Assembly: GCA_000934665.2 (NCBI GenBank)
Contig: KZ538083.1
Coordinates: 62,001 to 126,000, forward strand
Source of the DNA: Catajapyx aquilonaris
Taxonomy: Eukaryota
DNA: 64,000 bases
Direction of reading: 5' to 3'
Shown: in pieces, positions 21,611 through 53,016 of the stretch
Layout: each line of letters opens with the position of its first letter
Position numbering within the stretch: the stretch's first letter is position 1
Translations under genes and position numbers: made by a program
The notes under the pieces: model-generated
What the model was told of the DNA's origin: nothing
What the model saw: only the letters and a program-made list of their open reading frames with translations
Database searches by the model: none

Positions 21611-22855
21611 TTAATATGGCACAATCGGAATATACCTCTGATAAGCAACATTTTATTTATTTAATAATGTAACTTGGTAATTTAAAAATGTAAAATTACT
21701 AGAGTAATTTAAGAGCAGCACAATTTGGAGCTGGCAACATGTGTGGGGTGGCGCCAAAATGGCGCCGGGTTTTGTGAGGTTCTGATGGCTCGGCTGGTGA
21801 TGAAGTCGAATTTTGGAAGCCGAACGATCAACGAAGGACAGAGAGGCGAACCCTGCAGATTGCCAAGATGCTGAGGATCAACCAGCAGGTACCGGTATAC
21901 ACCCTGGGTCACAACTTGAAACACGCTTCTATACTTATAGGTATGATAATTATGCAACTATAATGTTACAGAAGCATCTCCATTGAGTTTAAACAAGTTT
22001 AAACCAGGTCTGTGCTCTATTTCTTGGTAGGCTACAGTTGAGAGAGTTTAGATCCAGGTCATGAGGTGTTGGAAAACACAAACATGTTAAAAGTTTCATT
22101 TGTGAGGCACCAGACAAGTTAATAACTTTTCAGTGATTCTCAGGTAACTTGGATATTTACTGTTTCATTATCTGAAAGTGCAATTTAAATACATTACGGA
22201 CTTGAGACTGACACACCTTCCTTGCAGATTCATGCAATTACACCATTTAAAAATTGAAACAAACCAAATGTGCGAAGAAAGACTGTATTGTCACTAACTG
22301 TGAAAAAATTATCATACATTCAGTAAATCTTGAACACTGCAAAAAAAATTGTGAATGAGATAATAATGAGCCCTGCATGTCTTCAGAAAGAGGGCGAAAT
22401 GCTGTACAACATCACAAGCTGAATAATCATGCACAGTAGCATAACAATTATAAAAGTAAGTTAACCTAAGGCTCACAAAATTAATCTGACACTGCTTCAT
22501 TGGCACATTCACACATGTAAGTTACCTAATGTCATGAGCATGAGGTTAGCAAGTTGCAACTAGCAAGTGGAATTGATGGGCTTTCACTAGCTGGGTGACT
22601 GATGTCTTTTTCATGTGTATCGAAGTAGGCAGCATGTGATGCATGCAGCACATTAACTTTAATGCATTTGTGTTGTAGAGCTGTCCTACCCTGCCTAGGG
22701 AAACGCACACAACCTCACTTACTACAATGTCACTAACCAAATGCTGATGGTGGTACACATGCTCACTTGAACAACTCTGAGGAGGATAAAAAATATCTAG
22801 CAGATTTTAGCTTCCTGGTGCCAAAACTCTGCAGAGAGAGAAAAAAAAGGACAGC

Positions 22856-25800
22856 TCAGAAATCTTTGGTAAAATGTGTGTTTAGCAGTCCAAACTTGGA
22901 ATGAAAGTCCTCAAACGATGAGTAGCTCTTGCTGCCGAAGTACTTGGCCTTTGACTCAGTCCTACGAGAGTTCAGGTGCATATCATCATACGGGAATAGC
23001 TGCTGTGGCTGTTGCCTTCTGTTGCACGGGGGACTTGCAGCAGTTAGCACCCTCTGTCCTCCAATGGTAACAAAGTTCTGAAAATTCCTCCAGGTGCGGT
23101 CATTGGCTACTGAGTCCGACTGCAGGGAGTACCTCTTATCCAGCTGGGAGTGGAGCAAACGACCCAGAGCTGCTGGTTGCCCCTTGGCGACCTCCTGAAT
23201 GGAGGGGTCCTCCTTTTGTGGGGTCTTCTCATCATCTACATCTGGTGAGGCACAAAGACAGATAAATTACATTATCAGTCCTCCAGTCACACAAGCATAA
23301 TTTCATGTGATGAACCACTCATTCAGCCTGAGGAGGGACATTTGAAGTTATTGTGCTTTACTGTTGCAGCTTTAGCGCACCTGTCATACCTTTGGGAGCT
23401 CCTTCTGGTGGCACTCTCAAGAACTGCCAGGAGGTGTCCTTCCCTTCCTTGATGAGAGAGACCCTCTTTGCTTCCTCCTCGCCCCCACCTCCATCTCCTT
23501 TTGTTGGAGGCACCACTTCCTCCACAACCTTCTTCTCTGGCTCCTCCTCTGCCCCAGACACATGCCTGTGCACCACCTCATGCCCCCCACTGTCCACCAC
23601 CTTTCCATTTCTCGTCCCCCTCTGCTGGCCCGCTAACAATTGTCTCCACTGTGGCTTTTCTTGAGCCACTGTGGAGCTGCTTGTGTCCATGCTGGCTGCC
23701 CTTCCGAGGTTGTGCCTCCCACTGCTTCCCTGAAAGCAATATGTCACTTATTACATAATGTGTAAAAGTGGTCAAGCGTCATTTGTACCCGTCAAGCAAA
23801 AGTCAGGTTTCCATTATATAGAAATTAAAATGGCATCCATGTTGGGTTGCTGCAGGATGTTTAATGTCTGCATACTCAACAACTAACCTGCGAGTGTGAT
23901 GTGAGCGAGGTAGCTGAAGGTGGCCAGCCCCTCCGCTTCTTCCTTCTTCCAGTGACCAGAAGAGTGGTCCATGCAGATCTAGCCTCTGGATAGTGTAAGC
24001 AACGCACCACAAAGATGATGAAACCTTGTAGGGAGTTGCACAAGCAGAACAAGTACTGGAAGAAGAGTCTGGCCCCTCCAACAGAGAATACCCCAAATAT
24101 CCAAGTCACACCTAGGAGTGCCATCACTGTAAATGCCCCGCGGACCTGGAAGTGGAAGATATATTTGTCATTGCATGAGTGGGCTAAGGCAGACATTACT
24201 CGTACAAGTCCACTCACCTGTGCAACCCCAATTCCCTTCTCCTTTTCCACCCCAGTCTTCCCAGCTGCTCTTTTCTGGAACAGTACGCGGCTGACCAAGA
24301 AAAATACAACACAGTTGACAGCCAGCATCACGCAGCAAGGAGCCAGATATGCCAGGTAGTATGCATATGGATGTCTTGGTGACAGTAAGCAAAACTCTCC
24401 ATTTCCTCTGGAGTACCACTGGGGGCCAGATCCTACCGTTGCTCCAACCACAACCAAAGGAATACCCCATGCTGCTGCCAGCCTCTTGGCCATGAATCTG
24501 GTCTCAGCAGTTGCAAACACAGTCACCAGCATCTGGTACATATTGACTGCCTCCACCAGCATCCAGGCCAATGATGCTAAAACAAGATAGTGCACAAGAG
24601 CACCAGTTGCACGGCACCAAGGGCCATCTGTTCCTGGGAGAGACCCTGCCAAGAAGGCAGCATTGAGAAGCAGGAGCGCTAAGCAGAGGTTGAGTAATAT
24701 TTTTCCAGAGTGGTCACGATTTAAGCTGCGGAAGAGCGAATATGTTGCAATGGTGAGGGCAAGGCCTAATGTGCTTAGTCCTGAGCCAACATAGCTGATT
24801 ATGGATAGTATGTATCTGTGGATATATGGGGTTGAGTCATTGTCAAGTGGTTCAAGCAGAACTGAAAATGCTGTCAGATGATTTGACTGGCACTCTACGC
24901 TGGCTGTACCAGCGACAGTTGTGATGCCATCTGACTTCCACTGCCGCACCACCCCATCCCAGTACACACAACGTGGTGATGTTACAGCCAAAACTGGCAT
25001 GTAATACACCACTGGGTGACTCAAGTCTTGCACAGTCAAGTTGGCTATTTCTGCTACTATCACCTCCTGATCCACTGGTGGTGCTGGACCATATGAGGGC
25101 CAGAACAACTTGGCATTGCGGAATGAGAAGAACAGAAGCCGTGTGTCATTGCTGGCTGCCCTCAGCGCTTCAGATGGGATGATCATACCATGTGGTGCAT
25201 ATGGAGCTGATAACTCAATGTCAGAATCCAGCTGTGCTGAGGCTACAAGTGTCACCTGCAAATAATTTCAGACAATTGATTGTATAAAAGAATTTGGCAT
25301 TAGCATTCTCACTGAAAATACTCGAGAGGCAGTCAGTCACAACATGCATGAATAAATTCAGGTTTTGGTTACAGGCAGGGGTTGGCCACTCCTCTTGTAT
25401 AAGTGTAGTGTACACCTGACTGCACTGTGACATTATTCAATGCTGCATATGGAATAATTTTTTATAAGGCTGTTCTAGAGCTACCGAGGGAGCAAGTGAT
25501 TACACTACAATGATGTGTACACCTCATTACAGGAGTCGCCATTCTCAGTTATACTGAACCTTTGATTCTCTAACTATTTGAATGAATTTCAAGTACTATT
25601 CACCTTGATTGCCATGTTTGGCCAGATATTGGCAACTGACTCGTTGGAACCTAGTGGTACACCTGTAGCGTAATGGTGAACTGCATCGAGTATAATATCA
25701 CCACTGCCCTCCATTGCTGTGTGGTTGGCCTCCATCAGGCGACTCACAGCAGAAAATACTCGATTTGCCATTTTTGGATCACTAATGGCAAAGGACACCA

Positions 25801-28800
25801 GCTGAGAGACCCGTTGTGCTGCGCCATGCACCTGGGAAGGTCCCATGGCCAGGGGATCACCTCTGGTCATCTGCTCCAATCCACGTGCCATTTCCTCTGC
25901 CCGTATTCCACAAGCTGTGGAGTTCACCTCTCCCCAGTGCACCAGTCCACCTGCCCATGAGCAGACACGAATAGCATAGGGGACACCGTTTAATCTAGGG
26001 CGCAACTTTGAATTTCCTGGGCTGACTCCTGGGTGACCCTCAGTGCTCTCGCGGTATTCCCAGTCCTTGAGCCTCGCATGATCTTTGGCTGGATCCTGCT
26101 TTAAAATGCAACAGAATAGAACCAATAACAAGAGTGCATTTAATCAAGGGAAGACATTAGGTTTGTGTTGTATAAGTACGGTATCTAAAGAAACATGTAT
26201 ATCAAAATGTTGAATTTCTGTAAGTTGCACAGGATATAGATTTACACCACAAATGCTTCTTATAAAAGTCACTCCCATATATGCTTCTGCATAGACTTAT
26301 CTCTCTTCAATTTATTACTTCATGTAAACAAAAGAAATTTACTCTATTACCTCACATGAAGTGGCATGCCATTATACAGTAACTCGGGGGTAGCCGGCAT
26401 GCCGCAATTTTAACCGAGGTAGATTTCCGTAATTTAGATCCTTGTAATTTTTTAATGGAATGCTTCTAGTTCATACTGATATTATGTTACGATCAAAATG
26501 GGCGAGTGTGCAGGCTGTGAGAATATGCAAGTTCTGTTGCACAGTGCATATAAAAAATGAAGACTGTGTGACCAATCCCATCGTCAGCCTGCTTTTAAAT
26601 AGAGATTACTGCCAGACACTGCAATTGAAAACAATATATTTGGAAATGTGCCTTTTCTATAACCCTTACATGAATTTCAATTTTCAGGCAAATGTCAAGT
26701 TCGGATGTAATGTATGTGAAAACCTCGCTTTACACTGGCATACCTCGCCCTATACCGGCATGCCGGTATATCCACCAGATCGTGCATTTCTAAAAACAGG
26801 TCGACCTCGGTTACACCTACATTCCGCTTTATGTGAGGTAATACAGTATTATTCGTAGCCCACAAATTGAGAAATAGCATATTGTAAATTATTTTAAGAA
26901 CTGGCATACACAGGGAAATTCCATATTTTTCTATAAATACTGATTAGCCACAACTGCTTGCATAATTTCAGGATCATGAACAGTAGCAGTGCTTCTGACC
27001 CTTTCTGATGCATCAGCCCTTCTCCCTGGCCTGATTTTGACTCCTCTCTTCCTCCTGGCTGGTGGATTTGCCCACTGGAAGAAGCCGCGCTGCCCCAGAG
27101 CACCGTTCAGAGTTGTCTGCACCACATCTGAGGGACCGATGGACTTGCTACCAAATGGACAAGGCTGCCTCACAATGCTTCCATGTTGTGTTTTGGGCCA
27201 AGTTAAGGTGCCATAGGGTCCAGTCACCATCTCCTCAGGACAGTTGACTAAAAAAGAGTCGGCAATGAATGAGTGAGTAAACTGATAATTGTTGCATAAT
27301 CTTGGATGTCTCATGTGCTGTACAGTTCTATGTACACTATCTGTTGGAGAGATAATTATGTGATCAATACCATTAGTACCAGCCAGCTGTTCAACAGCAT
27401 TAGTACATTGCAATTTGCAGTGAACTTACGTGATTACTTCCTGCGGTCAACAATTTATTACCCAGGCACTACTGGGATAGAAGAGTGGATTGATGTCTTG
27501 AAACCTAACAAATATCTGACCTGTCTATGCTACAGATTCCTACAGTAGTAAATGTGACTGTAGTTACTTGTATTAAATGCACTGAGCATTGGGACCGATT
27601 CACTCACTGCACTGCTCAACATTTGCCTACTCTTGTTAAGTTAGAATGTCTAAACTTGTTAGTAAGGTTTTTGAGAGGCTAATTACCGCAATAGTAAGCA
27701 GTTCAGGATGCAAATGACTTCCCTCTGGGTGACATACAAATGTTCTACAAAAATTACTCCTACACCACTCCAACAGCATTGACAATGTGCTTAGTTACTG
27801 ACCATTTCATCACAATCTTAATACTTGGACAACATGGTTGTAAGGAATTTGACCATTATGTCTAAAGTAGCCTAGTTTCTATATAATGAATTTCATCGAC
27901 ATAGCCTATGTACATTCCCACATTATTTCTCGGATCCGTGGGAAAAAGAGCATAAGTCAAAAAATGTGCAAATTGAGTTATGTGTTGTGTTACGGTCACA
28001 AGGAGTCCCTCTTGATTCTCCCGGAAAAATGTGCGAGCAAGGGTATATCATCTTATCAAGGAGATCTTGCTCGGGAAGAGAGGTACAAGTGAAGTGATTC
28101 CCAGCGCTGGATTTACGGCAAGGCAACCTAGGCAGTTGCCTAGGCGCTAGGGTGGCAGATTTCAAGGAGCAGCAAATTAAGGCATACAAAAACCTAAATG
28201 AAGAATAAATAATTACGCGTCTGGAAGCAGCACCGGATTTACCAGTAGGCAGAGTAGGCAATTGCCTAGACGCGGCAGCGAGGTGCAATAAATCTTTTTC
28301 AAATAGTCTACAATAATAGGAAGTAAAGGCGAAATCATTTAATAATTCAAAATTTTCACAGGGGGATTCCCAGCACTGAACTTGCCACTAGGCAGTAAAG
28401 CCTACTAAGGCCAGTCGCCCTCCACGGGGCAGCCATAAGTTGCAATTTAAATTTTTAAATAAAATGAAATGAAATGGAGAGAACTCCAGAGAAAAATTGA
28501 ATTTTTAAGCGTCATGGTGGGGGCGGATCTCAACTGCCTAAGGGTGGCCGGGGTGGGGGTAAATCTGGCACTGGTGATTCCATCCAACTTCGTAATGCAG
28601 GATAAACATTTTGCACCAAAAAGTACTTGTGTCATTGCCATGCATGTTTTCTATAGATTCTGCGCATATGCGAAAGGGCATATGCCATAATGTGATCGAA
28701 TTTCAAAATGGAACAAGTCATGTTTTCTAATTTTTTGGTGCATTTGCCTGTTCCATGTATTGTTATGTGATGATGCATGACCTAGAACCACACTTGTGCA

Positions 28801-31800
28801 GCAGAAATGCCAGTTCTGGACAGCATGCTGGCCTACATAAAATGTGTAAAGTCCAGTGTTTTAGAAAATTTGCTTTCTTGAAAAAAATTAATTTTTTGAC
28901 TTATGCTCGTCTTTTACCCGCGCATCCGATATTTACAGAAAAGATTATTGTTATTGTGTTACTTGTTAGATGAAAATCCACCATTCCCTTTTTCTACCGT
29001 CAATCCCTACTGTGTACTATCGTGTGCCACACACAAAGTGTCACTTCCCAATGAACCTGAATGACTAATATATTGTACAGTTGTCCTCACACTGAATTGA
29101 TGAGATAGTTCTTGACTAATTTTGAATCACGGTTGACACTTGACCTTAAATATTCTTGGAAGTTACATACAGCCTTCTAGAGCGATCTAGAGTGCCTACC
29201 TCACTTCTTGGACCCAATGTTCATAACTCATTCCCCTCCTCGTTTTCGCAACAATGAGACAATTCAGTGGGAGCCAACAGTGCAAAACACAATGTAGCTC
29301 AAGGGAAGAGTCACTTTGCAGCAGAGCACGCACTACAACCATACCTTTCTGTTCGCAAAGTTCCCCTTCAAATCCCAGAGTGCATCTGCACTCAAACTGA
29401 TTGGCATTGGGGGTGCAATTGCCCCCATTCTGACAAGGACTGGGCTTGCAAACTTCTGCAAGAATTTACCACATTTTTGATCTTCATTCACACCAATCCC
29501 CCCTCTTCCGCACTGCAAGTTGAGCACAACTCCACTCACCTAAGTCTACCTCACATTGTTTGCCTGAGTATCCAGGGGGACAAGTGCAGTGGAAACTGTT
29601 GACTGCATCACTGCACATGCCTCCATTCTTGCAGGGAGATGAACTGCACTCGTTGATTTCGGCTTCGCACACCTTACCTGCAACAGAGTAACAGTACGAA
29701 TGCCAGCTGTAATTGCTGTCAGACCATCTCATTACAAAATGCTCACCTTCAAATCCAGCCATACAGATGCACTCAAAGCTTCCATCCTCCCTGTAGATAC
29801 ATTTCCCACCATGCTGACAGGGTGAGGATTGGCACTGGTTGTAGATCTCACAAGTGGTCCCTGAATATCCACTACGGCAAAGGCATGTGAACTGATTGCT
29901 AGTCATGCTCAGGCAGGTCCCTCCAGACTGACATGGGGATGGGGTCATGGCACAGGGGTCAAACTGGGAGCAGTTGGATCCGTAAAAGCCTGCCAGGCAC
30001 TCACACTCGTAGGTCACGTCACTGGTGTTCCGACAAGTCCCATAGTCACTGCAAGGATTCAGGAAGCAAGGATTTCGCCTGTCACAGTCAGAGCCGTAGA
30101 AACCAGGTGGACAGATGCAACGATAGCCAGGTTTGGTTGGAGTTGGAACACACTCGCCATTCTGGCAAACCTGTAGCTTACAGTCTGAAATAGAGTCAAA
30201 GCAAAAATTCAATTGATGACGTTATATTTGAAAATATTCGAGCCGAGTTGTACTTCTTTCCTTGACCAAAAACATTCAAAACTCACAGTCAGCTTTAGTG
30301 GTGTACTCAATGATTCCGCTGGCCATTCCTACTTCCCTGGCATTCCAAGCATACACACTGAATTCATATTCTGTCCAGGGTGCTAGCCCACTGACATTGA
30401 GGCACATTCTCCTGTCCTTGGTTTCCACGAGTCCAGTCTCCCCTCCTTTATTGCCGATTGAGGATGTCGCATTGACCCTTGCCATCAGTCCATGTGCCTT
30501 TTCCCTCACTTGCAAAAGGTAGCCCAACACTGTCCCCAGCCTAGGTGCTTTCCAGCATGATAATGCCCATGTGTCTCCTCCACTAACCACCTTAAGTTCC
30601 TCTGGCATTGAGATCACTTTCACCTACAGTAGGGGTGTATGCATTAGTATTGCATTAGATGTGCTCTAACTAATGAACTAATTATGAAATTTATTGTCGC
30701 GACTAAATTGACTATTTATGAATTATGAGAGTATTGAATATCTACCTGCACTTCAAGGGCAGCCCTGGCCCTCCTCAGTGGTGAGCCTCCATCCTCAGCA
30801 ACAGCTACCAGACGGAATAAGCGTGACTTTGGTTCGAGGTGCCTGCGCAATGTTACAGCTCCAGTTTTCCGATGAATCTGGAAGAGACCAGTGCTTCCCT
30901 CCTCCACCAGGCGATAATAAACCTCTGAGTTGTAAGACACCGCATCAGCATCTGCTGCCCGCACATGCACTATGGGTTCTCCCAGGGGCATCAGGATGTG
31001 AATCTCCTCCCTGCATAAAAATAAAGACCAATAGTAGCAACAATAAGTACCGTGGCAAGCAGTGTGGGGAAGGACTCACCTGTACAAAGTTGTTTCAAAC
31101 ACAGGCGGATACATGTTGTACTCGGTGACCCTCACTTGCAGCGATTCATACTCACTCACTCCCTGGTTGTAAGACACCACAATGATGCTGTAGGTGGCGT
31201 TCAATGGCCTGTCAATATTCCTGCGCAAGAGTGAAGTAGTTAAAAAATGGTGGAGCATAGGATAAGTGTAAATTGATGCTTGATAAAAATTTATTTATTT
31301 TCTCAGCCTACACCTAAAGGTCATCTATAAAGTGCAAAAAGTGGGAGTGCACACATGTTTGATCAGGTGGAGGTGGTCTCAACTGCTGTAGAAAATTCCC
31401 TGCCATCTCAAGCATGCGGGAACTCCAACTTTCGTGTACTACTGTACCTGCTTGCTAGAAAAATGACCTTATTCATTACACCTCCTGTAGAGATGAGAAC
31501 ATCAAAAGGATTTAAAAGATTTCAATCACGATGAAAGATTACTGTAACAATGCTGCTGCTTAACCAATGAGTAGATAGCCAAAGACAAATTGGGTGATCA
31601 AATCGGCTCATTCTGCCTTGAGAGGCTATATAATCACATCAGATATTGGTGGGGGTGTATTACATAATACTTCTCTCAAACCATTAAGGCCAAATTAATC
31701 AAAAGACTCATCGACTTCAGTCCAGCCAATCAACGAAACCTTTTCCCAATGAAACCCCAAGTGATTTTGTCCGATGAAATTTTGCAAAGGCCCAAAGACT

Positions 31801-34800
31801 GTTCAAGTTGCAGCATATATGGAGGATTTATTCTTGCTGTTATAATAATGTTTCTTGTTGGCAATAATTTTTAAGATGTCTCGATCCATGGTTTGGTTTC
31901 TGTATGAAATAAGGGACAATATGGATGAATATGGTTTGTGCGGCCTTCATGTAGCCTACCTGAAATCCTAATTGTCTACTTATCACTATCGTACTCATTG
32001 GTCATGTAATACACCCACTTTGGGAAATACGCTCCACCTGTCAAATGGGGCACCATCTTTGAGCAGGAAAAGCATCGGATCAGACATGCCCTACTGCCAT
32101 ATATAAAAAGAATTCACTTTCCAGCAAGCTTTCCAGAGCATATGCAACCTCATTTAATTATAATGAATACCTTTTGGTGGTAACATCCCCCGTGTGGGCA
32201 TCGATACTGAAGAAACCATGGTCTGCACTCTCGTGGATGCGGAAGACAGGAGTGGCTGCTGCGGGGCCATCCGTGTCCCCGACCACCACCCGGGTCACGA
32301 ACACCCCCGAAGGTGCCCCTTCATAGATGCGGGCTTCGTGGGCCACCGGCACGAACTCCAGTCGCCCTGAGGATATATTCAACCAAAATATTACAACATG
32401 TTCCTATATACTGAATATGTGAAACATTAGCACTAAAATAACCAGCATATATGGAGCAATACAGTTCAAAGATATGGTAATTTACACGCTGGTGTTGCAA
32501 CAAAGTTTAAAAGTATACCGGTCTATTGTCGTCTCTTTTGAACTGGGTTGCTCATTTCCTTTCAGCTGATTTCACTTATTGTGTTTAGTCCTTCGGAAGC
32601 ATCAATAGCGAATCTCAAGGCTGTTCGAAAGAATAACCTCTCTGAGCCATTTGCATGAGTGCATCTGATTGTGGCTGGGTGCATTATGTGACGTGTTTTG
32701 CCTGTTATTGTCAGGCGTCATATAGATAATAATAAAAAAAGGACGAGTATTTGTGACGACTAGACGGTTTGGGAAAAGGCATTTCCGACGCAAAATCATA
32801 ATCGGGGAATGGCACTGACGTCACAATGACCATTTCAACAATTAAAATGTGACGTCAGTCTAATACTAGCCGCATATTCAGCCAATTAATGCATTTCCTT
32901 ACAAATGAACCGCGGTACATCCTGCAAACGATACGCGAGCAGCCGATTAAATTACAAGTGCAAATTACTCATACGCCATTCTCACCACCTTTCCTCGCCC
33001 AAGTGTTCGGTATGATGAATGGAGCGCAATTAAAACCTTTCAGCCCGTACAATTTTGTACGCGCAAATATTGGTGATTAAAAAAACTGGGAAAACGGAAG
33101 GAAGCAAATGGCCAAAGAAACGGTGCGGAGAAAGCCTTGTTCTCACAGTGCCTTTTCCGGCCTGCGACGTGTACAGGGTCCGTTATCTGAGCATCTTTGC
33201 AACCATCCCCTGCACTTATCATTTATGCAAAGGAAGAAAAAAAACAACAACATGAAGTTTCTCAAAAGATGATCACTTTCTCCTCCGATTCAACAACAAA
33301 AAAGCGTGCAAAAGACTGCTCCATATTTTCTCTCACGTAATTCCTCTGGAGGGTATGTGACGTGTCCTCTCGAGATTCTCTTTAAGAATTTCGAGTGTTT
33401 TTTTCCGTCCTTGGAACCGACGAACCGCGCTAAATACCAGAGGAGCCGAGATGTGTTTGTTTTTTGGTCGGGAAGCCATGCACTTGGTGCACCAGAGAAA
33501 CTGAAGAAGAAGAAGAAGAAAAAAAAAGCTCTGCATCTTTCAAGAACTACAAACACAGAACAAAAGGCAGTGATGTTGCCGTTGGCAAGGTTCTTTTTCT
33601 TCGTTACTGGTGACACCGGTGGCCTTGCCCTCCGTTCCAAATCGACTTCTTCCTGTTGCCGTATTAGGAGGCGCTTAAAAATTAGCGATTGGTCACAATG
33701 CGTGGTGTTGAGACAACTGGATTGTTCCAGTCAGAAGAGAAGGGCAGATATGTCATTAATAAGTAAAAATTGTGATTTTTCACTAGCGAGTTTCTGTAAC
33801 CTGAGAAGGGTAAGTGATGTCACAGGGGGCAACAATGGCTTTCAACAATAAGTAGTAATTAAAGGCGTGTGATGTCATACTCTTCCGTGGTTGCAGCAAA
33901 CTGTGAGACTTACCTTTCAGGGTTGAAAAAATAGCCTTGTATGGACAGAACAAGTAATTTACCTATGGGGCAACTTGTTTACGTCTAGTGGCTTAGATCG
34001 ATCACATCTAGCCATAAGTGTGGACATAAGAAGTAATTTGTTTATGCCAACTTCTTACATTTTCATGGTAGTCACCCAATATGTATACGATATCCGGTAT
34101 AGGCAAGGGTTGGTAATGTGGGAGTAAAACATGCTAATTTTTTGTGACCTTAAACTTCACAGAAGTGAAGCATATAATTATGGTGGGTTGCATGTTCAAG
34201 AGTAAATCCAAAGCAAGTGATTACTTCTTTTCTCATTAGTAATTGCAGACTGTAACATTATTCGAAGCAATACTGTAACAAGGATCCACATTTGCTTGGG
34301 TATACATACATACAGGCCACTGATACAAAAGCAACAAAGGGTCACTTTCTTTACTGATCCATATGTGCAGAAGTTTTAAAGTGCAGCTGCGCCATTCAAC
34401 AGCAATAATAACCTGCTGTATACGGTCCACGCATCAAGATCCAATAAGGAAAAAACAATGTTTCGATGAAGATTTACGACACCAGCACCACATAAAAACT
34501 GTTACAAGCTGCGCACCGGATCGTTCATCACAAAAGATGCTAACAGGATCACTTCCCTGCTTTCTTTACTCGATGGACCAGAAATTAGCCGGGACTTCGG
34601 AGTTTGTTTTTGGTGGAAAAAGAAAAGGAGGCTGAAGTCCACGAGGCGTGACTTCCTACATGTTCATATAACAGCGCTTTAACCGCGGACCTGCATTGTT
34701 GTGCATTGTTCTACCAGAAGAGTTACACCGAAAGGGTTAAACGCGTGTTGCTCGGATTATTTGCGGCAGTGAACCGTCTTTTAAAATTGAATTTGTCATG

Positions 34801-37800
34801 TAAGTATATTCAAGTAAATTTCAGTATGAAATACAGTATATACCCTCTATAATGTGTGTAATTGCATAATATGCTAATTATTGAAATAATTTTAAAATGT
34901 ATTTGTATGATGTAACAATATGTCCAGTATGCCTATATGGGCATACTGGACATATTGTTACATCATACAAATACATTTTAAAATTATTTAAAATTAGTAT
35001 ATATAAATATTATAGTAAATATTTATAAAATGTTTTCAATTCATATTCTATACTATGTGTAGACATGAAATTAATATAAAACCATTGTAAATCTACATTT
35101 TAAATGCATTTAAGTATACATATTGGTATTGTAAAATTTAATGCTAGTCAATACAAGCTACATAAATAAAAAAAATACGGGGCGCCGCTGCATGCAGGTC
35201 TGACAGTATAATAGCCTAATATAGACAATTTTAATGAATATTAATATTTAAAAAACCAGAAACCGGATAAGGGTGATCGGGGCAGTTCACACAAAAAGCT
35301 GATGTCATTCACAGCTGTTTGTTCTCTGACACAAGCTTGAAGGATGGTCCAAGGGCCCGTCGGCAAGGACGCGCCTGCTATTACTTTCCAGCAACATCTC
35401 CGGTGTCCAAAAATAAAAATCTGCTCCTCCAATCATCTTTCTCGTTATGAAGCAAGGATACCTCCATTGTACGGCCAGACTTGATGAGGAGAGGGAGACA
35501 CAAGATGTGTCGCAAACGGTGTGCCTTGATCAAACCTATCCGTTTGTTGCTTTGACCCTCAGAGCTTTTCAGAGATCCCCATCTGGCAGAGGCACACAGG
35601 AATAAACGTTTGGATGTCAAGGTTGACCTTAGTTACTTCAGATCCGAGGTGAGAGATATTTACGGGGGCCGTCGACTTGCCAGTCTCTGTTTGGCCGTCA
35701 ATGTCAGGAAATTTCTGGCGCAGAAACATTGGTCGCTGGGCATCGTCACGAACAGCTGCAACCTCCCCTTGACGCCTTGCGGCCAGCTACAAAGGCCAAC
35801 AACCATCAACAATCCGCCTTTTTGTTGTTCATCGCTCGCTTTCCAAATTCAGACCAGGATTTCGGAACTACCGATGAAAGGCAAAGCAAAGGTGACCGCA
35901 ACGGAATTTCCGGCCCCAGAAGCCCAACGAACCCAAAATGTGGGGTTCACCAAAAATGGCTAGTATAACAATGTTCCTACATGTGGGTGCCTGAACCAAT
36001 TTTCCTCTTATAAGACAAAATAGTGCCAAATGACATCACCATTGTTATTTGGCATTATGAAGTCGACATAATATTTTAATTGTTAATTGTTTTTTGTTGA
36101 AAATTATAGCACCATTTTTCTCTCTCTCCACAGTGAAAACAGGGCCATACCGAGCTCACCCGTCCTGAACCGAATCGAATCCGGATCGCAAGCAAAAATG
36201 CTTAGAAATCTGGAAAGCTCGCATTTTCACCAATTCATCTCCCGGATCGTGAATCAAGCATGTCCAGCGTAGTAGTAAAAGTGCGTGACGTCAGCAGATG
36301 CCATACCCGTATACCAGGGCGGGGGGTACATGCTTCATTTTCGCCTCCATTCAAAGAGAGCCCAAATGGGAACGACTCACGCCAAGGTTGCGGCTCAGGA
36401 AGGTCGTTCCCATTATCGCCCAGCACTCAAATTTACTCAAAAAATTTTGTTCGGATCTTCCATTAGGGGTAACCCGAGCTGGCGGGTAATTAACCCGCCG
36501 GAAGAATCCAGGTGATGCACTGATATACAGCTCATTAACGGGGCTTATCAGGTGCGCTTTCTTTTATAGACTATTGTGGGGTGTACTACCGATAGTGTCA
36601 CACCTAGCAACCCCGCCCAAATGGGTTGACATCTTAGGCTTGGTTGCATTAACACAAATTACAAGAGAAAAATATCCGATTATGTATAGATATTCGCAAC
36701 TACACGTGTGTAGTTTCGCAGCTCATTAGATGATTAGCCGGTCCTGATGCATGAGATAAATAATTAGAGGGTAGGTGGTTAATCAACGTTTTTGGTTGGC
36801 GTATATCATGCGAGGACTCCTCCCTTTTGCCATTCATTGCTGGCGATCAACCAGCCGCAGGAAGTCCATTTAGTTAAACAGTCGGAAATCACAGGTTTTT
36901 CCTATTAGTAGCACAAGGACCTCCCCAAGACAACAGCAATTTCCGGTACTTTCTCAGGGGAGGACCCCCGAAACGCCCTATGAATTTTGGCAATTTCGCA
37001 CACCTAACATTTCCACCTTCTACACCAAGTTTGCCACTTTACCTAAAAACTGCCCTTAGCACAATAGGGCATATAGCTACGGACTACTTAAACATCTATT
37101 GTCCCTTTCCCAATAATACGGTATTCCATGGACCCCATTTGGGCCGCAACCCCAACGTTCCTCCAGGTGTGGCCCCTCTCCAATTCATTTCGGGACGTGC
37201 CGATTGCAGCCTATTAGATGACGAGGAAGTGACGTTGAGGAATTCGGGGCTCTATAGAAAACTCGTGAGAAAGGGTGCCCGAAAGGTCGCGTGCCCCGGA
37301 GAAAAGACGAGCGGGAAATTGGCGGATCACAATCATCGGGCCGCGCGAATAAAGGTGGGGTCGAGCCTGGAAAAGGTCACCGTGTGAATGCCCAATCACA
37401 TCGATCCTTCCCGTTTGTTGCAATGAGCTGTTCCAATCCAAGGAGGAAACTAATTTCATAAATCCGGTTGCGCTAATCCTGACTGTTACATTAACCTTTC
37501 ACAATATTCCTCTGAGGAACCGCATTAATCATCAATACCCATGATCATCAACGAGCACAATTTTTTTATAGAACGTAGATTATTACTGCTATAACTACAG
37601 TTGAATCCGGATATAACAGCCTCTGCTATAACAGACATTCGGTTATAACATACTATAAAGGCCGGTTCCTGCATACTTCCATAAGAGCCTGTGCATTTTT
37701 ACTCCTGATATAATACTCATTTTCACCTCACCTCGGCTGTAACAGACAATTTCTTGGCTCCTTGATGGTAAAATATGTTTTTTTCTGACATATAATGGGC

Positions 37801-38888
37801 AAAAAGAAGACGGCAGAAGAAATTTACAAATTTTTTTGGTCCTGCCTAATTCACAGGTTAGTTCATTTTGCATATTTGTGGAAAGTTTCATTAATAAAAG
37901 CATATGGAAAGCAGAGACCTTTCTGTATTCGTTGCAAGTATCGATTTGGCTATAACAGACCTCGGTTATAAGAGACTTTTCCGCAGTCCCTTGAAGTCTG
38001 TTATATCCGGATACAACTGTATTATTAATTTGGACGATGTATTATGTGTAAGGGAAATCTTCCCTAATGTACCCGTCTGGGTGAGTGGGAATAAACAATT
38101 AATTTAAAAATTTAAAGAACTATTATTAATGTCTAATCTAGTAATAATTGTTATAGCTAATTGTTGTATAAAAATTGTGAGACTTGTTAAAGATAGAGAG
38201 GCTCTCTAGTTAAGGATCATGGATGATTCATGTGGTTCCTCAGAGGCATTGTTAAAGGTTCAACAACAACAACAACGGTTTCATGATATTTTGGCAATAA
38301 GAGGTAGCTATAAACCCTCGATATCCATGGGTCCATTATTCTAATCAACTACTCCATTACTGCCCTATAGAACTCCCTATAGATTTCTCCGTAAATCCTT
38401 TAGAAATTTAGAATATTCCATCATGAACTACACAATTCCTAAAATTCTCCGTAAATCTTTAATGGCTCATTCACAAAGAGTAAATCCACATAAGCTCGCC
38501 CAATCAAGCAGTTGTTCAGTGGTCATAAAAATGTTTGCGAAACCTCTGTCTCAACAGTTGTTCGCATTCAATTAGCCGTCTTCCTCGGCAGTAGGAGCCA
38601 ACGGACCCTAAGAAAGCGACAGGAATCCTGAGACAATGTGAGCCGGAACAATGGCATCTGAATAGCTATTTGTCCGCCCCTACAGCTAACAGTGTGACGT
38701 CTCCAGACAATGCAATATCTATCCCAAAAGTGTCCGTATATGTTTTCTCGGTACGGCGCATAGCACGCTACAACCTGGCCCATTTCCCATGTGTGGTTCC
38801 CACGGGGGTCTCTCCCAAGCAACACCTTGCTCTTACCTATTGCATCTTTCATCATCGCCAGGAGCATAATAGTGATTGTGAGCCTCAT
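22856..38888 (-). CDS. Adhesion GPCR, ~1442 aa: SP-2x cadherin-FN3-5x EGF-HormR-GAIN/GPS-7TM; exons 38888-38837, 32366-32171, 31220-31080, 31010-30746, 30623-30287, 30184-29747, 29677-29540, 27247-27000, 26095-25604, 25255-24218, 24145-23888, 23729-23390, 23241-22856
   Basis: All 12 introns are GT-AG with compatible phases (4329 nt, no internal stop). Motifs: cadherin (EGAPSG, DTDG, FSID.HTG.V, N.YPPVF, A.DAD, AEDGGSP), FN3 (GLAPWTEYEFSVYAWN), five 6-Cys EGFs, HormR (C..WPKT..G...CP / R.C..W..C), GPS (CVYW..W..C..HL|TAF), secretin-class 7TM. Confidence 0.9.
28102..28573. mobile_element. hAT-type MITE in an aGPCR intron
   Basis: 8-bp TSD GTGATTCC (28094-28101, 28574-28581), imperfect TIR CAGCGCTGGATTTA / TAAATCTGGCACTG, and subterminal AGGCA/TGCCTA repeats. 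Confidence 0.8.
34884..34989. repeat. Perfect 50-bp-arm palindrome with 6-nt spacer
   Basis: 34884-34933 is the exact reverse complement of 34940-34989. Confidence 0.92.
37598..38019. mobile_element. Tc1/mariner (pogo/Tigger-like) MITE
   Basis: TA-CAGTTGAATCCGGATATAACAG ... CTGTTATATCCGGATACAACTG-TA, with repeated TATAAC subterminal motifs. Confidence 0.85.
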
Positions 38889-40479
38889 CTTCTTCTTCTT
38901 CTTCTTCTTCTAAAACTTTCACAGCTGGGCCACTCACATCCCGTTTCCTTCGGGTGAAACCCCCGCTGCCGGCAATAATAAAGCACTGCACTGGGTTACT
39001 AATCGACACATCGCGCACCACACCACCATTGGCGCCTTCTGGTTCCTGGTGGCGCCGGAGATCAACTGAGACCCCGCGTTCAAACGGGGGAAGGTTTTGA
39101 ATACAGTGGCAGGCAGCCAATAGAAGGGCTTCCCAGGCACCTCCCCCGCTTTTTATTGCCCAATAAGAAAAAAGGCGCGGGATGTATCCGTACCTTGGAG
39201 ATAACAGCTGACGAGGGCATGTCAAGTGGTGACCCCGCAGTTTTTGTGTTGGACTCGACTAAAATATGGCACCATATGCATATAAGTTAAAATGTGACAC
39301 CAAAAGAGAACCCCTGGGAACTGCTGAATCGATGACAAGTGTGAGCTGATAGCAGGCAGCCTGGTGTTACTATTCACACTAGAGGTGTTACTGCCCGAAC
39401 TTGACTCAATTTTACATGTAAAAATAAGATGCAGTTCGGATAACCAAAATGTGTCTGATTTCATGCAAATGTAAATAATTGTAGCATGAAAACAATAATA
39501 AATATGATGATAAGTTCAATGCCAATAAGGCCCACATGGTTAACAGTAGAGTACACGAGATATTATTTACATTTTGTACCCAGCACACATTGTGCTTTGT
39601 TAGCTTGATAACTTGAATGTGGTCGATAGTGCCTAATCCTATCAACGCGTAATTTAAAACCTTTTTGATGCAGTAAAATTGCGTCGTGCATGCAACACAC
39701 TTTCTAGGAGAAACGAACCTGAAAACTAATCCAAACATAAAAGAGAATGTAAAAAAATGAAACTGCTGAATGTTCCAATTATATAACTAGTGAAAATAGG
39801 GATCTGGCTCGATCATGCGCCATATGTCCCACCTGAATAAATGAACACGCTCGCTTTTACCAATTAGCTGGACGACAACTGACCCGCTTCTACTAATCTA
39901 AAACGCAACATTTGAACGAGGACGAGCACAAAACATACAGATCAAAGCACAAAAAAGTGGGCGAGCTAAACATGGTTTCATCTGGTTCTGAGAGCACGAC
40001 TAAGAAGTGTTGCAGTGGGACACACTTCTTTTTTTTCTCTCTCTCTCTCCTCCTGCCCCTAAATGTGGGAGGGCCAGATTATCTGAGTCACGATCAAAAC
40101 ATTCATAGTTCAAAACCATTCCCCCTTGAAAACCAGTTTTTGTTCGGGCCGGAAAAAAATAAAATAAAAAGAGAATTCGTACACCTACTTCCACTTTATC
40201 GAAATCCTGTGAAAGTTACCAAATATCATAATCAACCCCCATCCCGCACCCCCTGGGGAGCAAGTGTCATTTCCTGCATGGAAATTGTCATGTCGTGCAG
40301 TGCTGTGGCTTTCCTTGTGCGCCGAATTGCATTCCGTCGAGTACCATCCGTTGGAAATTCGCAATTCGCAATTTTTCGATTTAAAATCGCCACAGGAAAC
40401 GTTTTTCCTGAATAGTATGCGTAGTATGAATAATATGCGATTTTTAAATTTCTCTATTGGTCATGAAAAGTCTTCAATG

Positions 40480-40738
40480 CAATTTTTTTTGCAACCAGTT
40501 ACACACCATGTCATTATAATTGTTCATTTTAGGAATAATTTTAAACATTATTTTTTTGTGCAATTTTTGCAACCAGTTGTACACTGTAGTATATGTAATC
40601 ATAATTATCATTTTTCATTTTAGTAATAATTTTAAAAATTGAGTATATATTTTTTACAATTTTTGCAACCAGTTGTACACTGTAGTATATGTAATAATAA
40701 TTATCATTTTTCATTTTAGGAATAATTTTTAAAATTAT
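40480..40738. repeat. AT-rich tandem repeat, 3 copies of ~80-96 bp
   Basis: Unit caatttttgcaaccagttgtacactgtagtatatgtaat...cattttag.aataatttt at ~40480, 40561 and 40657. A short inverted pair (atgcgattttta / taaaaatcgcac at ~40435/40797) flanks it. Confidence 0.8.
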
Positions 40739-42873
40739 CTATGGTGAGCAATGTTGCATAATCATTTATTAATTATAGTTAACAGTATGCAACTCTAAAA
40801 ATCGCACATTGATATTTTTAAATATTTTACCACGTCTCCTAACAAGCAAATAATAAAGTAGTCTCCTGGACTCATCCATCAGCACTCTAGCAAGAGTGAA
40901 TTTTTTCGTATTTTATTTTAAAATTTTTAACCTCCACCTTCATCGAGTGCTGACGGTGTATCAACAGCATGTTTGTCAGAAACATTTTTAGTCCATCGAG
41001 AATATCAGGTCCAATTCTAACAAATTAGTATGACACCACAAGAACCTGGACTGCTCTACTCTACATTGCGAAAAAAATTACTCCTCGACGCAACTTCCCT
41101 CGGAGGAAATTGGCCCAACCCGCTTTGAAGTAGTCTTGGACACTTTCTTCTTCCCCCAATCCCATAAGTGGATCCACTTGAGGAGGATGACTGAATATGC
41201 AAACTTGTGTTGGGCACACCCGCCCACGCTCTCTTCTGCCCCAGGATCAACATCCTTTTAGTCCAGGTCTGTCACAAAGGCGAGCCTCAATCCAGACCAT
41301 CTAAGGGGCTGTCCACGACCTAGCTGTTTAACCCAGTAACCTTCGGGTGAAGCTACACCTTGAGCAACCGGAACATTCAGCTTGTTTGTCCCTTTTTTTT
41401 TTCTTGCGCCCAGATTGGTGGTCATTATTGTTTTCAGGTTCGTGTAGAAGAAAAACAAGAAAACAAATTGAGGCTCGCGCATAGCCGCGAAACATTAGCC
41501 AAATTCTGCGAATTCCTCGAAGAGTGCTGGGCGAAATGCAAAATATGACCTGATATGACTAACATTAAAAATACGTCGCATTGTAGCATGTTTTCCTTCC
41601 ACTACAAGCTTTGTAAATCAAAATAATAATAAAATTCTAAATTCAAATCACATTTTTATTTCATCCTCCAAAAAAAAAAAATTAAAAATAAGGGTGGAAT
41701 TTTCGTCCCACTGCTATAGTTACGGCGAACTTAGCAGTGGGACTAGTGGCGAGACTAATCAAGTATTTAATAAAGTGACCCTGAAGGTCGGCGGAAATGT
41801 TCAAAAATCCGTGCACATTAATCAGTGTTCCGAAACGGATTAATTCACACACAATACACTTCAGGGCATGTGTGACCTTCCCCATTTCTCCGGAAGTATT
41901 TCATCCGCCAAAAAAAATTGGGTAATGTTCCGGCCGTACCGAAAAAACCGGAATGTCTAATCAAGATGTGAAATAACCGCTCATCCTGGATCACTTTCCT
42001 GTCGTTACTTGAAATGAAGGGAAGAAGTCTTAATAAGAGAAGCCGGCTTTGAAAAAAACAAAACGAGTTTTCGCGTGCGCTGAAAAACGAAACCGTTTCT
42101 TTTAAGCCAATTAGCAACCTTGTCTTATTTTGCTGGGGTTAGAAAAATTCAGAAAGAGCAATTTTAGCTGATTATGCCACTACCGCATGTTTACCAGTAT
42201 TTTTTAAATCAACAGTGCGAATTTTTAATGGTATGTAGATTAGGGTTGGGAGGCACCTGCATATATGGCCGGAGATGGGCTTTTCAAATTGCATCTGCAA
42301 CCCAAATGGGCGCATATGGCTGGCAACAGGCATCAAACAAATATTTGCCAGAATCTACCCCAAATAGCATGAGTGAAACCAGAGGCTTGTTTTTTCCCCC
42401 CTTGTTGCGCGTTTCAGGTTCCAGTCTATATAATTGCCCCATAATTAGTCTTCCAGACAAGATAGGAGCAGGGCTTTTAAGAATGGCATCTGTTTTTCTC
42501 ATAGCTTCGCAGGCTGGAGCTGGCCATGCTTATGTGATGCGCAGTAATGTGGAAGCATAAAATTTATTATGAACTACACTAACGGGGTGTTGCCAAAAGC
42601 ATGTTATGACAGCGACGAAATGCATTTTCAACGAATGCATGACAATTTGCATCGTAACTGTATGTACAGCAATGAACAAAATGGTACAGTACATAATGAC
42701 ATACATCTTTTCTTTGTGTACAGTACAGCAGTTGCCAGCGTGCTTCTAATCATTGTGATTACCATTGGGGAGACAACAGATTCCACTGTCCATTTTAGCT
42801 TCTTACCCTACAAGCAAATTGACATATTCCAGTAGAAGTCCAGTAAAGGATTCGAATTTTTCATCCTTCTCAG

Positions 42874-42976
42874 GGCCGGTTTCACCGAGCCTGGTTTTGA
42901 CAAAACTCTTTTGGAAAATCCCTGCAAATAGAATAGGGATTTTCCAAAAGAACCTGAGTTTTTATAGAAACCGGCC
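42874..42976. mobile_element. Small hairpin MITE (PIF/Harbinger-like ends)
   Basis: Terminal GGCCGGTTTC / GAAACCGGCC plus an internal perfect 17-bp stem, 42907-42923 / 42935-42951. Confidence 0.55.
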
Positions 42977-44661
42977 ATGGGGCATCAGACCACATATGTT
43001 ACGGTCCATACACTGATACAAACCGTTAGGTTCAGTCTGAAGTGCTTCTCCAGCTAATTAGCTAAAGATGACCACTGATTGAGAAAGTTGGGAACAGGAT
43101 TGCTATTAATTAAACATCGGATTCAGAAGGGCAGCTGACTTTATTTGCGTCCTGTACCTCCAATGATGTACCAAATAGTCCTTAGCTAACTATACTGCTA
43201 CAGAGTAATATGCAATGTAACCAGAGAGCTTGTCATCCAAACCAAGAGCAGTCACATGCACACCTCTTCAAGAAGTAGTTTAAAAAATTAAAAAACAGAG
43301 ACGCACGACCACCATACAGGAATGAAGGAGACAACCATCGAACAACACCCAAAGTTATTGAGACATAAGTAGGCTTTCCTTTTTGCCGCTCAATTTTGGA
43401 TAAAAATGGTCAGTGAGGTAGGCTTGCATTTTGAAACCCCACGTGAGAAGGGATTTTTGTTTCCGACAAACACACATTTACAAAACAAGTCTAATGTTGC
43501 CAAAAAGAATGCAAAATCACTGCTTTTTTTTTTTTGAGGGACCTGCCTTTTGCAAGTGGCCCCTCCTAAAACTCAAAAATACTATGCTGACGATGGAAGA
43601 TCAGTTCTAAGGACTTACACGCTTTCTAACCCACAAGCTACTGAATGCTAGGGGGGTTGTAAAAAAATTCACAACCTAAACTAAGTGACAGACACCACAA
43701 CACTCACTAGCACCACTTTATCAAAAATGGGAGGATGAAAAAAATAAAAAGCAACATGTAATCTGCATCCTGGAACCTGCTCCTGACATGCCAAAGCGAC
43801 TGGCATGAAAGAAGCAGATTCCATCGTTTCCCAGTCTTCTAAATGCGGAGGAAACGATCATGGCCCACTCATCCTTTCTCAGATGGAGAGCAAACCCCCG
43901 ACGATATCACAAGTAAAAAGGATGTATTGCACAGGCACTAATGCTACGAGTCCATCTATTTAAATGCTAAAAAAAAGCCGCATGGAAAACATGTCCTGAC
44001 CTTGCGCTCCATCTGAGAAACCTCATGTGAATCACAACCACATCAAATGTACACCTTTATGTACAGTATAAAATTGTTTCCACATATATAAGTACATATG
44101 GCCCAGATTGTTAATAAATTAGCAATATAAATACTAAGTCCTACCAGTTAAGAGCTATAAATACTACAAAAGTGGAAAATAAGTGGGTGCAACATTGTGA
44201 GCTGCCCTTGACATTCATCTGAACTGTTGCTTTGAAGATCATCAATTGCCCTCTGTTACACTATTAATTTTGACACCTACTCGTTAAATTAATATGCATT
44301 GTCAGTTTCACTTACAAGTTAACTCCAAACTAATACTGACACTTTATACTTTTTATGAGATTCACTATAAATCTAGGTTCTTAAAAAATTGTGATTCAGC
44401 TGCTTTGGGAAGATTCTACATTGCTGAAAAGCAAGAAAAAACTATCAGTGATGTAATGCAACCTAATTTTTGAAAATTTACCGAATACATTTAGGATTAG
44501 GTATCAATCTTTTGCAAATTATGGACAGGTACGATTCCAATGCTAATTGTCATTTTTCATGTTAAAATGCTTGCCATGAATTTGACCAGCAATTTCGAAT
44601 CAATTATAAATACTCAAATGAAATCCGCATTTACCAAGTTGTTGAAAGGAGTGTTTTCATT

Positions 44662-52852: not shown

Positions 52853-53016
52853 TCGGGAATTGGATTCATGCCGAGTCTCACTGAATTGGTACCGGCGGTA
52901 TGCATACGTCGGTATAGGTGGTGGCAGGACTGCGTGCGAAAAATGGGGTCACCTGCTGGGTATATCGATTTGGCGAACGAGGACGCCCCTGGAGTCGACT
53001 CAAGGCCTTCCACAAT

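Follow-up and report, generated by a model that had tools for sequence, protein, structure and literature searches.

We analysed a 64,000-nucleotide stretch of the Catajapyx aquilonaris genome (GenBank assembly GCA_000934665.2, contig KZ538083.1, positions 62,001 to 126,000), which we refer to as the window and number from its first letter. Between positions 38888 and 22856, its minus strand very probably carries a single intact gene coding for a G protein-coupled receptor (GPCR) of the adhesion class, from an unnamed arthropod and mollusc family. The encoded protein consists, in order, of a signal peptide, two cadherin repeats, a fibronectin type III (FN3) domain, five or six EGF repeats, an HRM domain, a GAIN domain with its GPS, a seven-transmembrane (7TM) domain, and a tail of ~260 residues.

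Exon structure and domains of the gene

When in-frame pairs of GT and AG splice sites were enumerated along the minus strand from 38888 to 22856, 13 or 14 exons could be joined without loss of frame. The 14-exon model encodes 1397 residues and has one terminal stop codon. Leaving out the exon at 29455-29345 keeps the frame and yields a 13-exon model of 1360 residues, again with one terminal stop and with GT-AG sites, which bears out the 13 in-frame exons of a preliminary description of this locus. The joins 38837>32366 and 29540>27247, which that description had marked for checking, are both in frame at predicted splice sites. The exons are listed below; the Pfam scan took as its input the minus-strand stop-to-stop frames of 22856-38909.

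Exon 1, 38837..38888, minus strand: start codon and signal peptide; 17 residues plus 1 base, phase 1.
Exon 2, 32171..32366, minus strand: first part of cadherin repeat 1; Pfam Cadherin, E 4.2e-8; tblastn match to Strigamia residues 4-69.
Exon 3, 31080..31220, minus strand: rest of cadherin repeat 1 and the linker between repeats 1 and 2; tblastn, orthologue alignment, and splice sites.
Exon 4, 30746..31010, minus strand: cadherin repeat 2; Pfam Cadherin, E 4.7e-12; tblastn, alignment, and splice sites.
Exon 5, 30287..30623, minus strand: FN3 domain; Pfam fn3, E 3.7e-9; collinear with orthologues.
Exon 6, 29747..30184, minus strand: EGF repeats 1-3 and most of EGF 4; Pfam EGF over exons 6-7.
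Exon 7, 29540..29677, minus strand: end of EGF 4 and EGF 5; Pfam EGF, splice sites, and alignment.
Exon 8 (optional), 29345..29455, minus strand: sixth EGF, 111 nt, phase 1-1; Pfam EGF, E 5e-6; good acceptor and donor.
Exon 9, 27145..27247, minus strand: N-terminal half of HRM; 3' end uncertain, 27104-27152.
Exon 10, 25604..25994, minus strand: C-terminal half of HRM and GAIN subdomain A; 5' end uncertain, 25994-26095.
Exon 11, 24218..25255, minus strand: GAIN subdomain B, GPS, tethered-agonist stretch, and transmembrane (TM) segments TM1-TM5; Pfam GPS, E 9.4e-10, and 7tm_2, E 1.2e-32.
Exon 12, 23888..24145, minus strand: TM6, TM7, and the start of the tail; preceded by an in-frame 72-nt intron, 24217-24146.
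Exon 13, 23390..23729, minus strand: cytoplasmic tail with a conserved motif at 23450-23400.
Exon 14, 22856..23241, minus strand: end of the tail and stop codon (22858-22856); weak similarity to decapod tails across the junction of exons 13 and 14.

Exon 1 was the sole minus-strand candidate within 32403-44500 to combine an ATG start, a hydrophobic stretch, a phase-1 end, and a good donor site, and in the alignment the signal peptides of orthologues stop at the matching point ahead of cadherin repeat 1. An (AAG)n microsatellite (38889-38909, minus strand) lies directly upstream of the predicted start codon, in the presumed 5' untranslated region.

Both short introns (69, 69, 72, 84, 102, and 122 nt) and long ones (about 0.95, 1.15, 2.1, and 6.5 kb) lie within the gene. 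Two of the short introns, 31079-31011 and 24217-24146, contain no in-frame stop and might be taken for coding sequence. Reading through 24217-24146 (72 nt) and 29746-29678 (69 nt) would add 24 and 23 residues, respectively; we rejected both as coding, since the orthologues do not have those residues and the ends of both stretches follow the GT..AG consensus. For the intron that splits the HRM domain, nine in-frame junction variants scored 65.6 to 88.6 bits with a profile of 57 orthologous HRM-GAIN-A segments. The junction 27145>25994 came out top, albeit without any variant being singled out, and all HRM cysteines are kept in every variant except the lowest-scoring one (27174>26005).

The sixth-EGF exon may or may not be included in the transcript: the 13 arthropod orthologues aligned pass from the fifth EGF straight to the HRM domain, and, judged by its sequence, 29455-29345 could be constitutive, a cassette, or unused. 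Exon 13 is supported as coding by the conserved tail motif that it carries. Exon 14 is weakly supported and appears to be the least certain exon of the model. A poly(A) signal-like hexamer lies beyond the stop codon, at ~22663.

Pfam recovered the domains in the order that the preliminary description had given, although its count of five EGF repeats must be widened to five or six. The EGF model matched five stretches over exons 6-7 (E 4.8e-35). A GPS, as expected of an adhesion GPCR, was found at E 1.7e-9 (38.5 bits; cut-off, 22.5), and the seven-helix domain of class B2 was matched by 7tm_2 at E 2.1e-40 (139 bits; cut-off, 20.6), with seven hydrophobic segments downstream of the GPS. The GPS motif occupies 24976-24857, and its H-L|T cleavage triad is intact at 24880-24872; isoleucine and serine stand at the positions of cysteines 2 and 4, and TAFS follows the cleavage site. 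In the linker between the cadherin repeats, the DxNDN motif is degenerate and the inter-repeat calcium motif only partly kept, as judged by eye from the alignment. No Pfam match to Laminin_G was found in any exon frame or in the eight relatives scanned, and none to CUB, pentraxin, or SEA in the exon frames.

The tail had been described as long and acidic. Its 262 residues include 33 acidic (D+E) and 41 basic (K+R) ones and have an isoelectric point of 9.5, so that only patches of it are acidic. Positions 23450-23400 (minus strand) encode K-E-G-K-D-T-S-W-Q-F-L-R-V-P-P-E-G, an instance of the consensus K-E-G-x-D-[TS]-S-W-x-F-x-R-x-P-P-[DE]-G, which matched no named domain. A phmmer search with the tail recovered this motif in three cockroaches or termites, a locust, and three decapods (E 3.7e-7 to 1.6e-3), and we saw it by eye in the aligned barnacle orthologue. 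Outside the motif, the tails of orthologues differ from that of the window protein. Such conservation probably points to a cytoplasmic interaction, with a partner recruited at the motif.

Relatives in arthropods and molluscs

Relatives were collected in three protein searches: a search with the GAIN-B/7TM frame gave 36 proteins of similar length, a search for longer proteins gave the best 120 of 170, and a search with the 7TM of a 2088-residue cockroach orthologue found 112 proteins of 1148-3654 amino acids (aa). Close relatives are 41-59% identical to the window protein over the GPS and 7TM (best identity, 54-59%), and their precomputed Pfam lists combine Cadherin, fn3, EGF, GPS, and 7tm_2. 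They come from chelicerates (ticks, spiders, scorpions, horseshoe crabs, sea spiders, and a mite), myriapods (a centipede and a millipede), crustaceans (barnacles, Daphnia, ostracods, decapods, and krill), a springtail, non-holometabolous insects (cockroaches, a termite, a locust, and planthoppers), and molluscs (gastropods, bivalves, and octopus).

With the window's modules as phmmer queries against 196 fetched proteins, 112 of these had a close 7TM (at least 230 bits). Among the 112, the cadherin module was present in 86, N-terminally and in the same order as in the window; the EGF array was found in 100, the HRM/GAIN-A module in 90, the GAIN-B/GPS module in 108, and the FN3 module in 56. 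No N-terminal cadherin module was found among the fetched proteins with a weaker 7TM match (<230 bits). A special or lineage-specific assembly is not supported, given the recurrence of the same architecture and order in predicted proteins of many arthropods and molluscs.

The proteins of Strigamia maritima (T1IQ43), Rhipicephalus pulchellus (L7M4R1), and Amphibalanus amphitrite (LOC122383897), a Periplaneta americana "uncharacterized protein", and proteins of Haliotis and Mactra are examples that share the Cadherin-fn3-EGF-GPS-7tm_2 architecture of the window protein, with its domain order over the full length. The number of EGF repeats differs, being possibly six in the window, five in the aligned arthropod orthologues, and higher in molluscan members. 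Database names of the relatives are automatic and contradictory (uncharacterized, ADGRE1-like, ADGRE2, ADGRL4-like, CELSR2, ADGRG4, GPR64, and LAT-2); we found no curated name on any of these arthropod and mollusc proteins and no published study of them. A Protein Atlas search returned only generic chordate 7tm_2/GPS clusters (scores, 0.87-0.93). The architecture was not among the matches listed from holometabolous insects, vertebrates, nematodes, annelids, brachiopods, and flatworms; since the protein searches work through a word index and within set ranges of length, absence from these groups is suggestive only.

By tblastn, ten full-length homologues aligned to the locus in the order of their domains and to no other part of the window, and the multiple alignment is gap-free through the cadherin, FN3, and EGF exon junctions. 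A model of this kind could nevertheless have been built by wrongly fusing two neighbours, namely, an upstream cadherin-FN3-EGF protein, secreted or membrane-bound, and a separate HRM-GAIN-7TM receptor, particularly as the exon joins in the window are predicted from sequence and introns of 1.9-2.1 kb and ~1.15 kb lie between the EGF exons and those for HRM and GAIN. However, the junctions keep the frame, and the last EGF exon has a donor site and neither a stop codon nor a membrane anchor. Moreover, several orthologues with the whole architecture and all of its Pfam domains come from contigs that leave little room beyond the open reading frame (ORF; 1374 aa on 4704 nt, 1434 aa on 4757 nt, and 1518 aa on 5181 nt). 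Contigs that barely exceed the ORF are most simply read as assembled transcripts, in which case the cadherin and 7TM ends would sit on one mRNA in those species. UniProt entries from a tick and a scorpion, which we presume to derive from transcriptomes, carry the whole architecture as well, and the domain order is constant across arthropods and molluscs. We therefore consider a fusion of two neighbouring genes highly improbable and treat the locus as one gene.

Placement of the receptor among adhesion GPCRs

A family signature could be read from a 79-row alignment of the GPS and 7TM, in which 50 rows, including the window protein, belong to the family and 29 are outgroups. The H-[LM]-[TS] cleavage triad is kept in 50 of 50 family rows, and GPS cysteines 2 and 4 are missing from all 50, with a hydrophobic residue at the second position and S, A, or T at the fourth. 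Both cysteines are kept in 26 of the 29 outgroup rows, the exceptions being the sea-star sister discussed below, a sponge protein, and an aberrant fish entry. After the cleavage site, the family reads T-[AS]-F-[SA]-[VIL]-L, compared with T-N-F-A-V-L in most other rows. The two-cysteine GPS and the tethered-agonist consensus are thus common to the window protein and the unnamed arthropod and mollusc proteins, and the tail motif is shared within Pancrustacea. The four GPS cysteines of adhesion GPCRs form two disulfides, and the joint loss of cysteines 2 and 4 would fit the loss of one of these bonds.

Among solved structures, ADGRG6 (148 bits), ADGRG2 (146), and ADGRG4 (129) ranked highest, ahead of ADGRL3 (116), ADGRD1 (111), ADGRE1 (90), ADGRG1 (88), and ADGRF1 (79). 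GAIN-B alone matched ADGRF1 (in the GPS part only), ADGRG6 (~105 residues), ADGRG1, ADGRG3, and ADGRB2.

Two trees were built from the GPS and 7TM segments: a quick tree of all 79 and a careful maximum-likelihood tree of 47 rows and 328 columns (LG+C20+F+G4; support given as ultrafast bootstrap/SH-aLRT), from which 32 rows had been dropped as near-duplicates or as the four longest branches (Coilia, Electrophorus, Aphelenchoides LAT-2, and Allacma). The two trees agree, and the Pancrustacean subclade with the window's gene had an SH-aLRT of 99 in the quick tree. In the careful tree, the cadherin-FN3-EGF family forms one clade of 26 rows (96/90), within which molluscs (99/97), arthropods (99/97), and Pancrustacea including the window's gene (100/99) each group together; the window's gene adjoins the decapods (80/91). 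Since the gene tree mirrors the species tree, this is an old orthologous family.

One split of the careful tree, supported at 100/99, places the family with a ray ADGRG6 (Narcine) and with amphioxus, mollusc-LRR, echinoderm, and cnidarian "G6-like" proteins; on its far side lie ADGRE1/3, Cirl, a sponge L4-like protein, molluscan BAI-like and Ig-cadherin receptors, and a hemichordate PTX/LamG receptor. The family's sister is a sea-star EGF-7TM protein (100/99), and the family is not nested with ADGRG6. This sister, from Acanthaster planci (P0177 in our set), has EGF, GAIN, and 7TM, no detectable cadherin or FN3, and a two-cysteine GPS like that of the family, a hint of a receptor core older than the divergence of protostomes and deuterostomes. 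The preliminary description had called the 7TM ADGRG-like, in agreement with both the lead of ADGRG6, G2, and G4 in the structure ranking and the position on the ADGRG6 side of the split, apart from Cirl. These results support, at the level of sequence comparison, a place for the GAIN and 7TM of this family in the ADGRG6/G2/G4-like region of the adhesion GPCR tree.

Like the window protein, ADGRG6 (GPR126), ADGRG2 (GPR64), and ADGRG4 (GPR112) have an HL|T site followed by a T.F..L.-type tethered agonist. In contrast, identity to these vertebrate receptors is only ~28%, their ectodomains are of CUB, PTX, and SEA types (in part from Pfam lists) rather than cadherin-FN3-EGF-HRM, and they keep the four GPS cysteines (as in the Narcine ADGRG6 row), two of which the window's family lacks. 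We found neither the ectodomain of the vertebrate ADGRG members nor one-to-one orthology to an ADGRG.

CELSR1-3 and Flamingo (ADGRC) are, like the window protein, cadherin-bearing adhesion GPCRs with EGF, HRM, GAIN, and 7TM, and this common set raises the possibility that the gene is a shortened CELSR/Flamingo paralogue, that is, a seven-pass cadherin that has lost most repeats and its laminin G domains but whose 7TM still falls inside ADGRC. CELSR proteins have ~9 cadherin repeats and laminin G domains in ~3000 residues, and an FN3 domain is, to our knowledge, not part of them. In contrast, the window protein has ~1400 residues, with two Cadherin matches, as in its orthologues, instead of a cadherin array; an FN3 between cadherin and EGF; and no laminin G among its EGF repeats. 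No CELSR, and no protein of CELSR architecture, appeared among the 112 matches of the cockroach-7TM search, although its range of 1148-3654 aa takes in proteins as long as CELSRs; this supports, indirectly, a 7TM placed outside CELSR. The top-scoring solved structures for the window protein are ADGRG6, G2, and G4, and GAIN-B alone matched no CELSR (CELSR1) or latrophilin chain among the solved structures at E up to 10. As far as its available text goes, a study of CELSR counts 23 adhesion domains and mentions deposited structure entries for the CELSR1 ectodomain (PMC12038025). A shortened CELSR paralogue is accordingly most unlikely, and the earlier statement that the protein is not of Flamingo/CELSR type in architecture stands. 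The ectodomain of the window's family is unlike that of any vertebrate ADGRG and unlike that of CELSR/Flamingo, and, as far as tested, its architecture is independent of CELSR.

The ADGRE/ADGRL4 (EGF-TM7) label that many pipelines assign does not hold for this family, since ADGRE1, ADGRE3, Cirl, and the sponge L4-like protein all lie across the 100/99 split. The Drosophila adhesion GPCRs (Cirl, Flamingo, Remoulade, Mayo, and Ketchup) belong to the same receptor class, but none has the architecture of the window protein, and no holometabolous insect protein was among the matches listed from the search for longer proteins and the cockroach-7TM search. According to the available portions of two papers, Mayo and Ketchup consist of GAIN and 7TM only and Remoulade is ADGRA-like (PMC13197933, PMC6900090); none of the five fly adhesion receptors is like the window's in those portions of the first, a 2026 Pharmacological Reviews article (PMC13197933). 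Six molluscan proteins (P0189-P0194; ~3000 residues, with Ig, cadherin, HRM, GAIN, and 7tm_2) are, like the window protein, cadherin-bearing adhesion GPCRs outside CELSR. They differ from it in having many more domains, ~30% identity, and a 7TM that groups with BAI-like receptors across the 100/99 split. In the phmmer survey with the window's modules, two of the six (P0190 and P0194) gave generic cadherin matches at internal positions, with E about 1e-7.

Several points weigh against reading the locus as one complete gene of this family with an ADGRG6-like core. All junctions are predictions, and exon 1, the sixth-EGF exon, and the HRM junction are the least settled of them. The HRM domain scored under its Pfam cut-off of 26.2 bits, both in the frame (E 1.2e-3, 19.6 bits) and in the exon 9 piece (E 5.1e-4, 20.8 bits). 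For GAIN subdomain A, exon 10 of the window gave no Pfam match at an E limit of 10; by phmmer, this exon is homologous to the HRM/GAIN-A region of orthologues, and in Strigamia the region ahead of GAIN-B matched GPR128_GAIN_subdomA, an ADGRG7-derived model, at 25.8 bits (cut-off, 22), with weaker matches in Nilaparvata and Acanthaster. Among the 112 close relatives, 26 lacked a cadherin-module match and 56 an FN3 match, many of them being short or partial entries. Finally, the tree is unrooted, has no CELSR, ADGRA, ADGRD, ADGRF, or ADGRV rows, and includes ADGRG6 as its one bona fide vertebrate ADGRG, so that the term "ADGRG-like" rests on one split together with the structure ranking.

A decaying, non-functional copy of the family is the least probable of the alternatives, as nothing direct favours it beyond a weak donor in the HRM exon and the want of a near-identical database protein, whereas the 13 or 14 exons are all open with a single terminal stop, the cleavage triad, family cysteine pattern, seven TM segments, and tail motif are intact, and the terminal branch of the window's gene in the 47-row tree is of ordinary length (0.43, compared with a median of 0.48).

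Classification, possible mechanism, and genomic surroundings

Full-text literature searches turned up no description of a cadherin-FN3-EGF adhesion GPCR, in line with the earlier suggestion of a possibly uncharacterised receptor class. Scholz et al. (2019) reported unassigned invertebrate clusters based on 7TM sequences alone and called for new subfamilies; in the available parts of that paper, ectodomains are not described and the word cadherin is not used (PMC6900090). Members of the window's family may sit in one of these unnamed clusters. The same authors split ADGRG into GPR56/97/114, GPR64/112/126, and GPR128 (PMC6900090), which fits the structure ranking obtained for the window protein. 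Judging from the accessible text of each source, Wittlake et al. (2021) defined ADGRN and ADGRX in chordates only (PMC8584163), a choanoflagellate GPCR paper mentions cadherin only among its references (PMC12716839), and a bivalve tentacle paper includes an adhesion GPCR auto-annotated as CELSR1 (PMC11682238). An "Adhesion GPCR G2-like" transcript that is slightly higher in ganglia and gut in a stick-insect transcriptome, as far as that report could be consulted, may be an orthologue (PMC6426647). The preliminary description was partly confirmed in what it observed and partly supported in what it made of the observation.

We slightly favour the view that these proteins constitute an overlooked adhesion-GPCR subfamily, going back at least to the protostome ancestor and possibly bilaterian given the sea-star sister, that is related to but distinct from ADGRG2/4/6, was lost in vertebrates and holometabolous insects, and was not retained in nematodes. 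If this is true, its defining traits would be the cadherin-cadherin-FN3-EGF-HRM ectodomain, a GPS minus one cysteine pair, and the tail motif of Pancrustacea, and it would need its own subfamily letter in adhesion GPCR nomenclature; its loss from vertebrates, holometabolous insects, and nematodes would also explain why there has been no model-organism work on it. The classification of adhesion GPCRs and nearly all functional work on them concern nine vertebrate subfamilies, five fly receptors, and three worm receptors. The locus and its relatives define one invertebrate cluster, ranging over ticks, spiders, crustaceans, cockroaches, planthoppers, oysters, and octopus, by a fixed ectodomain, a diagnostic GPS signature, and a clear relation to ADGRG6-type receptors. 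The comparison further indicates that cadherin repeats and adhesion-GPCR cores were united on at least three separate occasions: in CELSR, in the window's family, and in the molluscan Ig-cadherin receptors. Annotators can take from it that the present automatic names (ADGRE1-like, CELSR2, LAT-2, and GPR64) are either arbitrary or mistaken. As regards the window itself, the gain is modest, in that it adds one more orthologue of a family already present in public databases as predictions.

A possible mode of action can be outlined from the established behaviour of adhesion GPCRs, given in part in a review (PMC13197933). The steps of cleavage, activation, ligand binding, and coupling are those that we infer, starting from the observed gene structure, domains, orthology, and relative placement. 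The GAIN domain would cleave itself at HL|T, and the N-terminal fragment, consisting of the two cadherin repeats, FN3, EGF repeats, and HRM, would stay attached and use its cadherin, FN3, and EGF modules to engage a partner, either in the matrix or on another cell. Pulling or ligand binding might then expose the tethered agonist T-A-F-S-V-L-L, which would activate the 7TM and, in turn, a G protein, while the conserved tail motif would probably recruit a cytoplasmic partner. Classical strand-swap homophilic adhesion seems unlikely for this protein, because it has only two cadherin repeats.

No tandem paralogue was detected in the 64-kb window by tblastn of the ten homologues, no Pfam match was obtained for eight ORFs inside the gene or next to it, on either strand, and 22000-40000 contains no long repeats and only one trivial tandem repeat. 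Judged by their predicted products, the neighbouring genes are apparently unrelated to the adhesion GPCR gene. They are as follows.

1104-3209, minus strand: ionotropic-receptor-like frame of 701 residues; Pfam Lig_chan, E 1.1e-3, 19.2 bits, under the cut-off of 30.8; possibly a divergent ionotropic (chemosensory-type) receptor gene.
17025-18482, plus strand: HMG-CoA synthase in two exon-like frames; HMG_CoA_synt_N, E 1.1e-59; HMG_CoA_synt_C, E 2.2e-65 and 6.2e-18.
45093-46659, minus strand: Wntless-like TM protein in two exon-like frames; WLS-like_TM, E 4e-30 and 1.5e-15; the next gene upstream on the same strand.
49728-50510, plus strand: TRM13 tRNA methyltransferase exon; Pfam E 9.1e-47.
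52918-54782, plus strand: two overlapping long frames of 373 and 306 residues with no Pfam match, in the most G+C-rich part of the window (0.54).
57121-59889, minus strand: exons of an aldehyde oxidase/xanthine dehydrogenase-type molybdoenzyme; MoCoBD_1, MoCoBD_2, and a/b hammerhead.

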